From Elsinoe ampelina (lineage: Eukaryota): a stretch of 64,000 bases of DNA. The stretch is taken from contig ML992512.1 of the NCBI GenBank assembly GCA_010093995.1, forward strand, positions 405,736-469,735, given 5' to 3'. Below are positions 36,520-40,439 of the stretch, one piece after another. The notes below the pieces were generated by a model that did not search any database, was not told the DNA's origin, and saw only the letters and a program-made list of their open reading frames with translations. Position 1 is the stretch's first letter. Each line of letters opens with the position of its first letter. The position numbers and the translations under genes were made by a program.

Positions 36520-38021
36520 CTAATGCACCCCATTAACCCCATTCCCATTCACCGCCCGCCCATTGACCTCCTTCGTCTTATGTCCCTTTGTGCTCTCGAT
36601 CCACTCATACCTATCCCCCAACGCGTTCGCCGCCCTGACATCCCCGCTCCTCGCGTGCCCCTCAAAGTTCTCCGCCCTGGCCGCGCGACCGCATAGCCGT
36701 CCCAGTTCCCCGCTGGACTGTGGGTTGCGGACTTCTTGGTAGGTGCAGGTGCGCAGGTACTTGCCCACCCAGAGGCCGCCGGTGTATTTTGCTGCCTTGC
36801 GGGTGGGGAGGACGTGGTTGGTGCCGATGCACTGGGGGGTGTTAGCCAGGGGCTGGGGGAGAGGAGGGGAGGGGGGCAGGGAGGCAAAGGGGAGGGGAAG
36901 GGGAGGCAAAGGGGAGGGGAAGGGTAGGGAGGGGAGACAGGGGAGGGGCAACGTACCTTGTCACCGTAACTCACGCACGTCCCTTCGCCGAGGAACAGAG
37001 CGCCGTAGTGCTTCATCTTCTCCAACGCCTGCCTCGGGTTCCTGGTGAGGATCTCGACGTGCTCGCTCGCGAACTCGTCCGCGACGGAAAAGGCCTCGTC
37101 GAGCGTGTCCGTCACGATGACCTCGCCAAAGTCGCGCCAGGAGACGCCGGCGATGGGGGCGGTGGGGAGGACCTCGAGGAGCGCGTCGACGGCGGCGATG
37201 CTCTTGGTCGCGACTTCCTCGCTGTTCGTCACTAGCACGGCTGGGGTGTCGGGGCCGTGTTCGGCTTGCGAGAGGAGGTCGACGGCCACGGTGTAAGGGT
37301 CTGCGTGCTCGTCTGCTACGACGAGGATCTCGGTCGGCCCGGCGAAGAGGTCGATTCCGATCTCGCCGAAGAGTTGGCGTTTGGCTTCGGCGACGAAAGC
37401 GTTGCCGGGCCCGGCGATGAAGTCGACCTTTTGCATCGTCTCGGTGCCGACGGCCATGCCGGCTACGGCTTGGACGCCGCCGAGGATGAAGATTTCGTCA
37501 GCGCCGGCGAGGTGCATGGCTGCGACGGTGGCGGGGGGGATTTGGCCGAGGATGGGAGGCGTGCAGGCTGTGACGTGGGGGACGCCGGCGATTTTGGCGG
37601 TGAGGATGGTCATGTGGGCGGAGGCGAGGAGGGGGTAGCGGCCGCCTGGGATGTAGCAGCCGACGGACTGGATGGGATTGTTACGTTGGCCGAGGAAGAC
37701 GCCGGGTTGGGTCTCGATCTCAAAGTCTTTGATGCTGTCTCGTTGGGCGTGGGCGAAGACGGAGACATTTCGTTGGACAGTCTTGATGTCTTCTATGGTT
37801 TGAGCGGGGACGGTGGCGATGATCTTGTCGATGTCTGCTTGGGAGAGCTTGAAGGATGGCGGTGACCACTTGTCGAACTGCTCTGAGTATTTGCGGATTG
37901 CTGCATCACCTTCTGAACGGATAGCGGAGATGACGCCAGATACAATGGTGGCAACCTTTGGATCTGAGAGTGCGGGGGAGGTGGATGTGGTGATGGGACG
38001 CTTGAGGTGCTTTGGTGCCAT
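36520..38021 (-). CDS. Stand-alone histidinol dehydrogenase-family enzyme, HpsN-like
   Basis: ATG 38021, intron 36832-36956. GCYIPGGRYPLLASAHM, GPGNAFVAEAKRQ, IDLFAGPTE, DLLSQAEH, SEH, YGDK|CIGTNHVLPT, YTGGLWVGKY, EGHA. Confidence 0.88.
36879..36922 (+). repeat. Exact 22-bp tandem duplication (GGGAGGCAAAGGGGAGGGGAAG x2) inside a G-tract intron
   Basis: Units 36879-36900 and 36901-36922 are identical. Confidence 0.9.
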
Positions 38022-39323: not shown

Positions 39324-40439
39324 ATGGCAACTCCAATGTCGACTCCCCGCCAGCCTTTTGCTGAGCTGAGTGGCCAGAGGCTACAGCACCTCACCAGCGT
39401 CAAGAACCGCCAGAACGGTATGGCATTGCCACCGACGCTCTCCAGACAGCAATACTCATGACATACAGGCCTCTTCTCCACCCCCTCCAACGTCAAATCC
39501 CCCCTCTCAATCATGACCAAAGCCTCTCCCTCACCCGTCTCCACCTCCAAGAAACGCACCTACGACTCCTCCCCGGCCTACTCAGACGGCGACAGCGAGA
39601 ACGTCGACCCGACCATCTTCCTCTCCCCCTCCAAGAAAACCAAAGGTCTCTCCGGCAGCACCATCCTCAAGCCCTCAACCTTCTCCTTCTCCAAGCCCAA
39701 CCCCGCCATGCCCTCTTCCCTCCTCCGCCAATCCCTCGCCACCCCCCGCGCCAACATCTCCTCCCCTCGCACCCCCGCCACCGCTCCAGCAGGCCGCTCC
39801 CCTCCCCGCAAGAAACTCTCCCCCAAACGCCGCATCTCCGCGCCGTACACCCGTATCGACCCGCCTTCCTCCCACCGCAAGTCAAAGGACGCAGGCATCC
39901 CCTTCTTCTCCCTCGAGGAAGCCCTCGCCGGCTCCCTCAACAAACCCGTCGCTACCGTCTCGTCCGCGGCGCCGGCTCCTGCCGTGCCCAAGGTGGAGTC
40001 AGGCATGCCGAAGTGCTGGTTCTTCGCTATCCACGAGGATACACCGGACCAGGAAGCGGAGAATCTCATGGAGCATTCGACCAAGGTTTTGGATTTGTCG
40101 AGTGATGAGGAGGGGACTAAGCGGGCGGATCGGGGCAAGGAGAATGTGGCGCCTGCTGGTGCGGCGCAGGTGGTGAGGAGGGAAGGGAAGAGGACGAGGA
40201 GGAGGAGGGTCAAGGTTGATGTTATGGAGGAACAGGAGGGGGAGAGGAGTCCGTTGAGTGAGGTTGAGAGGGAGGATTTCTTCCCGGAAGGGGTCAGGGG
40301 GGATGAGGTTGTGGTTGTAGGATTGGAGGGCGTGGTAGAGGAGAAGAAGGAGGAGGTTTCAGTGCAGACTGTGCAGGCTGTGCCGACGCCCGTCAAGGGG
40401 GAGATGGAGGATATCGTTATCTTTGAGGATGCGGAGTAG
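39324..40439 (+). CDS. Disordered protein with ABBA/KEN/D-box motifs (candidate APC/C regulator)
   Basis: ATG 39324 (MATPMSTPRQPFAELSGQRLQHLTSVKNRQN); intron 39418-39468 joins it to the 39513 ORF. Motifs WFFAIHEDT, GKENVAP, RSPLSEV. Confidence 0.8.

Follow-up and report, generated by a model that had tools for sequence, protein, structure and literature searches.

A histidinol dehydrogenase-like gene of Elsinoe ampelina belongs to a sister clade of HpsN and may serve a catabolic ring pathway

We analysed a 64,000-nucleotide stretch of Elsinoe ampelina DNA (the window). A minus-strand gene occupies positions 38021-36520 and encodes a product of 458 amino acids. Exon 1 (36957..38021, minus strand) contains codons 1-355 and exon 2 (36520..36831, minus strand) contains codons 356-458 and the stop. 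The single intron (36832..36956, minus strand) is 125 nt long, has phase 0 and lies directly after codons for the residues GDK. It carries a GTACGT donor, a CTAAC branch site and a CAG acceptor. The corresponding joint, 36831-36957, is present in contigs of four out of four sequencing runs, none of which is recorded as RNA. Because exact skipping of a GT-AG intron is expected of a transcript, we read these runs as spliced transcript despite the missing RNA record. Other splice choices were considered (12 in-frame GT-AG). Of these, the pair 36956/36832 alone offers a donor and a branch site that fit the consensus, preserves the motif and is seen in reads. At all seven other fungal loci examined, a GT donor follows the GDK codons at the same position, which suggests that the intron is old. 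Both the joint and the shared donor agree with the original prediction of a domesticated gene with one intron. On the coding strand, the intron interior (window 36849-36938) consists almost purely of a C/T repeat with CCCCT-type units.

A deposited 458-aa protein, which its source calls 'histidinol dehydrogenase [Elsinoe ampelina]', corresponds to the product. The sole family match of the product is Pfam Histidinol_dh (PF00815). In a run from a related organism, 22 of 24 differences were synonymous, indicating purifying selection. Five Elsinoe/Sphaceloma orthologues are 90-97% identical to the product. The gene is confirmed as real. GC3 is 0.65 over the first 120 codons and climbs to 0.84 over the remainder (window 36957-37660); values for neighbouring genes and HIS4 are 0.54-0.63.

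Within the window the gene is an orphan flanked by housekeeping genes, with an EMP24 gene and a UPF0047 gene among its neighbours. We take the other flanking genes to be of XRN1 type and M16-peptidase (STE23) type. Neighbour proteins from 45 bacterial loci or from the four fungal cluster loci described below had no match elsewhere in the window. A mis-fused Sphaceloma gene model, P0123, joins the dehydrogenase to a homologue (62%) of window ORF 39462-40439. Hence, the position of the gene is common to this genome and a related species.

We aligned 93 sequences, including E. coli HisD and HpsN of C. pinatubonensis HN-2, which is encoded in an intact hpsRNOUP-suyAB operon. Residue roles were mapped from the C. 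pinatubonensis enzyme, CpHpsN (PMC11382572, available text). As the original prediction stated, the zinc and catalytic motifs are intact and every motif quoted is found in the product: SQAEH, SEH, YGDK-CIGTNHVLPT, YTGGLWVGKY, EGH, YPLLASAHM and IDLFAGPTE. Exon 1 (minus strand) encodes the mapped NAD-binding residues F49/D50/F209, the motif GRYPLLASAHM, Zn ligands Q252/H255/D354, catalytic E320/H321 and, by alignment, K355. Exon 2 (minus strand) encodes H361, YTGGLWVG, E409 and the trans Zn ligand H414, all placed by alignment, and a C-terminal tail (441-458) of low confidence. The counterparts in HpsN are Glu318 (E320), His319 (H321), Gln248 (Q252), His251 (H255), Asp352 (D354), His411 (H414) and Lys353 (K355). 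Across the alignment, every Zn, catalytic and NAD position of CpHpsN is retained, as are Lys353, Arg123, Tyr124 and Asp352. The shared features hence include the NAD-selective Asp and the tripeptide GRY. The product has a HisD fold, and its top Foldseek match is HpsN 9CP7 (TM 0.76-0.80). The single-chain model has an rmsd of ~20 Å to the solved dimers, probably because of a swapped C-terminal domain, and the protein is probably a homodimer. Judged from its sequence and fold, it is a member of the PF00815 structural family with an intact Zn/NAD site.

The database name implies a redundant monofunctional histidinol dehydrogenase. Consistent with the name, the product scores 446 on the TIGR00069 hisD model, for which the cut-off is 243.8. 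However, true HpsN also passes, with 429 bits, so this model does not discriminate. The product shares PF00815, the catalytic and Zn residues and equivalents of Glu414 and Leu138 with HisD/His4 (E. coli 1KAE and the HIS4 of this genome), as well as Pro-Leu at HpsN positions 125-126. In contrast, overall identity is 34-35%. The G-S-A-P-L-type motif and GDY pocket of HisD are replaced by GRYPL and GDK, and E. coli HisD Glu356 and Tyr361 become Val and Lys. These two are presumably histidinol-binding positions. A separate, intact-looking trifunctional HIS4 (PRA-CH, PRA-PH and HisD) is encoded on contig C16, as had been anticipated. It is 34% identical to the product and was the only other family member in a search of the genome. 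A grouping of the fungal sequences with the HIS4 of this genome was rejected (AU p=7e-10), and the tree did not join them to canonical HisD either. No his-operon genes were found among the annotated neighbour families of bacterial clade loci; the clade never occurs among his genes, and the E. ampelina gene coexists with HIS4. We conclude from these comparisons that the product is not a histidinol dehydrogenase of HisD/His4 type, as the original prediction held, and the function implied by the database name is most improbable.

HpsN is the closest characterised enzyme. Among solved structures, C. pinatubonensis HpsN gave the best score (370.6 bits), ahead of R. pomeroyi HpsN (336) and HisD (at most 269). 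HpsN (8V35/9CP7 from C. pinatubonensis and 8WWE from R. pomeroyi; PMC11382572 and PMC11131964, available text) has the same fold as the product and 44% identity. The motif G-R-Y-A/S-H defines HpsN. Its His126 is a Zn ligand in the open form, whereas in the closed form this residue and Lys353 together bind the sulfonate (PMC11382572, available text). The E. ampelina product instead reads G127-R-Y-P-L131, so Leu131 takes the place of His126. All nine HpsN sequences labelled by context (four plasmid operons and five fusions to a CuyC-family domain) have His126. None of the 120 homologues listed, the best 120 of 8000 scored, has it; 112 read PL and eight AL. A Lys at the Lys353 position occurs in 119 of these same best 120. 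Further differences are a clade-specific His136 and GGLWVG in place of GGLSVH. The original prediction took YPLLASAHM and YTGGLWVG for HpsN signatures. They mark the clade of the query; the corresponding HpsN patterns are Y[AS]H.ASA.M and GGL[SNG]V.

We placed the gene in a phylogeny of 48 of the 93 aligned sequences (IQ-TREE, LG+G4), with AU tests of constrained groupings. Eleven fungal and 19 bacterial sequences form one clade (100/99) and HpsN forms another (100/100). A tree containing HisD, His4 and HpsN thus went against the placement originally proposed, and grouping of the fungi with HpsN was rejected (AU p=0.0004). Of the claimed match to HpsN, what stands is that HpsN is the nearest characterised relative; membership of its clade does not. 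On this phylogeny and the motifs, the product is not HpsN and belongs to a separate sister clade.

All 11 fungal sequences form a single clade (100/100), which groups with Actinomycetota (100/99). The fungal clade thus lies inside an actinobacterial group, in agreement with the bacterial origin predicted. Its sister is an Arthrobacter plasmid gene (99/96, 67% identity). A position of the fungi outside all bacterial members was only just rejected (p=0.048), and one as sister to all ten actinobacterial sequences was not rejected (p=0.35). The tree supports one early transfer from Actinomycetota into Pezizomycotina, with the exact donor order not fixed. Apart from the gene itself, the 120 matches listed (best 120 of 8000 scored) are 68-77% identical and include one Streptomyces record. 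Those that are named presumably span genera of Dothideomycetes, Eurotiomycetes, Sordariomycetes and Leotiomycetes. By these matches, this is a common gene of Pezizomycotina and not an Elsinoe oddity. GenBank also holds Parastagonospora sequences named histidinol dehydrogenase, which look like a targeted survey. Bacterial members, recognisable by the same motifs including 'ASAHM', are 55-68% identical and fall in one clade with the query (100/99). They occur in Arthrobacter, Brevibacterium, Nocardia, Streptomyces, Pseudoalteromonas, Bacillus and others, and share SDR, CocE and FAD-oxidase partners with the fungal gene.

Gene company was assessed at 56 bacterial clade loci, each at least 10 kb long. 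The counts, to which duplicate loci and many closely related Nocardia and Streptomyces contribute, were SDR 48, LacI 37, HpcH/RraA aldolase 26, bicupin 24, alpha/beta hydrolase 23, double SnoaL 22, VOC-fold protein 10, aspartase 6 and MMSDH 3. The commonest operon contains the bicupin, double SnoaL, alpha/beta hydrolase and HpcH aldolase genes. When the bicupin and SnoaL proteins were searched against the PDB, none of the characterised relatives was informative. In E. ampelina, the bicupin and double SnoaL queries from these operons found no homologue; the HpcH (34%) and alpha/beta hydrolase (24%) queries gave only distant matches. In annotated plasmids, FAH, extradiol dioxygenase and monooxygenase genes adjoin the clade gene. 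At freshwater actinobacterial loci it sits beside a 36-38% CocE homologue and an FAD monooxygenase. As contexts vary by lineage, the clade may serve several substrates.

Other arrangements were observed in bacteria. A second HisD-like paralogue (GRFPL...AFM, YSDK) lies within 7 kb of the clade gene in bicupin/SnoaL operons (L009:1915-3273, L010:7117-8319 and L014:1391-2722). It adjoins HpsN in the tree (89/84) and lacks His126. Rhizobial loci L113, L115 and L116 hold a further GDK-type (YSDK) HisD-like clade, each beside a small cupin gene. In Bacillaceae (L103, L028), the clade gene shares an operon with an Fe-alcohol dehydrogenase and a CoA-acylating MMSDH, governed by a sigma-54 activator; L103 additionally has a GntP permease. 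This operon is a compact system for finding the substrate.

We next consider sulfonates. A fungal HpsN would provide sulfur or carbon by oxidising R-DHPS to sulfolactate, or cysteinolate to cysteate. Other enzymes could also allow desulfonation in fungi. HpsN is the closest solved relative in both sequence and fold, and the product keeps Lys353, Arg123, Tyr124 and Asp352. Weak DHPS cross-activity of HisD-family enzymes is described in the available text of PMC11131964. In addition, no His126 mutant is reported in the available text of the HpsN structure papers (PMC11382572, PMC11131964), so loss of this residue need not exclude sulfonates. LacI and SDR genes often lie beside clade genes, as in the hpsR-hpsN-hpsO arrangement of HpsN. 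However, His126 is absent, the AU test separates the fungi from HpsN, and suyA/B, comD/E, slcD, cuyA/B/C, tauE and yeiH are absent from all 56 bacterial clade loci (each at least 10 kb). Conversely, all four His126 loci carry at least one sulfonate-catabolism gene set; these loci supplied the sulfonate-gene queries and cross-detect each other at 39-68%. Whereas HpsN has hpsP, suyAB, cuy or com neighbours, the clade has ring-cleavage neighbours instead. The SDRs beside clade genes are 23-39% identical to HpsO, compared to 50-51% between true HpsOs, and two neighbouring ThDP enzymes score 288-296 bits on the Xsc model against a cut-off of 620. In the E. ampelina genome, the UxaA/SuyB family had no match (the control matched in 5 of 14 genomes) and no CuyA orthologue was found. 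The DHPS role first proposed for the gene is thus opposed by Leu131 at the His126 position and by the missing sulfonate genes, and we consider a fungal HpsN unlikely.

Bilophila HpsN oxidises L-cysteinolate (PMC12814064, available text). In many metagenomic proteins (P0173-P0221), a HisD-family domain is joined to a PLP domain of the DegT/CuyC family. The five that were aligned carry His126, so these fusions are likely single-chain cysteinolate racemase-dehydrogenases.

In fungi, a conserved cluster surrounds the dehydrogenase in metagenome contigs L055, L056 and L061 and, in part, L059. It encodes an MFS protein, an FAD-linked oxidase of EncM/BBE type, an SDR, a cupin, a CocE/NonD hydrolase, a Zn2Cys6 regulator, an ALDH-like protein, a LigB/DODA-type dioxygenase and an FAD monooxygenase with an ADC-like domain. 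L055 ends just past the dehydrogenase and shows only the MFS, FAD-linked oxidase, SDR, cupin and CocE/NonD genes. L055 and L056 come from one assembly and L059 and L061 are near-copies. Hence, the cluster rests on about three organisms and the present split genome. L058 is long enough to judge and has unrelated neighbours; L060 and L090 are too short. The nearest solved relative of the CocE partner is 3IB3, an uncharacterised CocE/NonD hydrolase, and a look-up of this partner in the Atlas yielded no more than the name of its family. In four plasmid contexts this partner accompanies a cyclase, FAH and an extradiol dioxygenase, with no substrate named there.

The cluster set is kept in E. ampelina but split over three loci: the window gene, C26 and C12. 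The part on C26 (29400-48300) encodes the FAD monooxygenase-ADC protein, FAH, MFS, ALDH-like, GNAT, CocE/NonD, cupin and LigB/DODA proteins and a Zn2Cys6 regulator. It has no dehydrogenase, SDR or FAD oxidase gene. Identities to cluster homologues are 72% for CocE and 66% for LigB. The FAD oxidase-MFS-SDR trio is at C12:996260-1001320, 4 kb from the contig end, with identities of 63-69% for the FAD oxidase and 69% for the SDR. The dehydrogenase is therefore not physically part of the cluster here. The original prediction that no partners are recognisable nearby describes the window correctly; it missed the ring-cleavage-type gene groups elsewhere in the genome. A mandelate racemase/enolase-family gene at C26:25642-26757 is 3 kb from the C26 cluster part; we take it to be rhamnonate-dehydratase-like.

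The cluster might make or detoxify a metabolite, such as a DODA-type ring-opened pigment or a plant defence phenolic, with the dehydrogenase tailoring the product. The nearest solved relatives of the dioxygenase are 4,5-DOPA extradiol dioxygenases and YgiD, and the EncM/BBE type of the FAD oxidase also fits. Aspergillus nidulans AN2723, annotated histidinol dehydrogenase and a candidate orthologue only, is listed at 2.7-fold in a NapA-dependent table (PMC5371717, available text). Against this, neither the cluster loci nor C26:20-70 kb showed a PKS or NRPS backbone. Genes for FAH, a hydrolase, ALDH and an importer typically belong to catabolic pathways, and the gene contexts in bacteria are of this kind as well. 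A metabolite role is hence improbable.

Published work touches on the partners. An extradiol dioxygenase is listed as induced in the gallate-linked study PMC10512348 (available text). The term 'histidinol' is absent from its main text, 12 supplement files and Table_2; the latter also lacks 'extradiol' and may carry no descriptions. The term is likewise absent from the available supplement of PMC10512309. In the literature searched, a coverage that leaves out most subscription papers, we found no study of the sister clade or the fungal cluster.

It is likely, given these residues and gene contexts, that the enzyme uses neither DHPS nor histidinol and serves a catabolic ring pathway. HpsN chemistry is NAD+-dependent and Zn-chelated, with two hydride transfers via an aldehyde hydrate (PMC11382572, available text). 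Retention of the HpsN/HisD residues would be in line with the fallback of the original prediction, another alcohol-to-acid oxidation route. The product would be a Zn2+/NAD+-dependent HisD-fold enzyme acting late in the catabolism of a ring compound, where it would make an acid from a primary alcohol or from the corresponding aldehyde. By analogy to HpsN/HisD, His321 would be the base, Glu320 would activate water and two hydride transfers would occur. The substrate would chelate Zn via a 2-OH or 2-NH2 group and have an anionic group held by Lys355. Since the sulfonate-binding His126 is gone and the Lys is kept, the anion is most likely a carboxylate. The substrate class is thus inferred from the kept Lys, the lost His and gene context. 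A candidate form is ring-opened HOCH2/OHC-C(OH)(R)-CH2-COO-, the carboxylate analogue of DHPS or sulfolactaldehyde. For example, 3,4-dihydroxybutanoate or 3-hydroxy-4-oxobutanoate might yield malate. An amino analogue might yield aspartate (six bacterial loci have aspartase) and a branched analogue a citrate/CHA-type acid (26 have the HpcH/RraA aldolase).

Alternatively, the enzyme may act early, beside the FAD oxidase, on a hydroxymethyl or diol side chain of an intact (hetero)aromatic, pyrone or sugar-derived ring. Consistent with this, the dehydrogenase is part of a fusion protein in Trebonia (P0167) and in a metagenome (P0170), the other part being a 43-45% homologue of the fungal FAD-linked oxidase. 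The cluster already has a separate ALDH, and bacterial loci have LacI regulators and sugar-type transporters. Conversely, the pathways in which the clade occurs differ widely, and a small late intermediate common to them would be a better fit. Lys355, with its role taken from PMC11382572 (available text), suggests that the substrate is already anionic. Early action is possible though rather doubtful. To a late-acting, carboxylate-binding dehydrogenase in a catabolic ring pathway we would give an even chance.

For late action, the partners would fall into an order. Upstream, ring activation would fall to the FAD oxidase and monooxygenase, and ring opening to the LigB/DODA dioxygenase. The opened ring would be trimmed by the CocE/NonD hydrolase, cupin, ADC-like domain and FAH. 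Stereochemistry at C2 would be set by the SDR, the part that HpsO plays for HpsN. More tentatively, Pezizomycotina may share an undescribed, partly actinobacterial pathway, in which a HisD-fold carboxylate counterpart of HpsN leads to malate/citrate-type acids. The LigB/DODA dioxygenase and CocE/NonD hydrolase would then open a plant- or microbe-derived ring compound for entry into the TCA cycle. This same tentative proposal includes a bacterial mycosporine/gadusol role. There, the same enzyme in the bicupin/SnoaL operon would convert the hydroxymethyl-carbinol of a ring-opened mycosporine/gadusol core to 4-carboxy-4-hydroxy-2-oxoadipate. By the chemistry proposed, this product would feed the neighbouring HpcH/RraA aldolase.

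Two activities are established for the HisD fold, on histidinol and on DHPS/cysteinolate. The present clade is a third, and large, clade. In bacteria, and in many fungi that live in soil or attack crops, its members wrongly bear the name histidinol dehydrogenase. Hence, genome models based on family models, and surveys of HpsN, miscount it. Extradiol ring cleavage is called undescribed or uncommon in fungi (PMC10512348, PMC12388069, available text). The fungal cluster is a defined, deletable gene set for finding a fungal extradiol ring-cleavage pathway.
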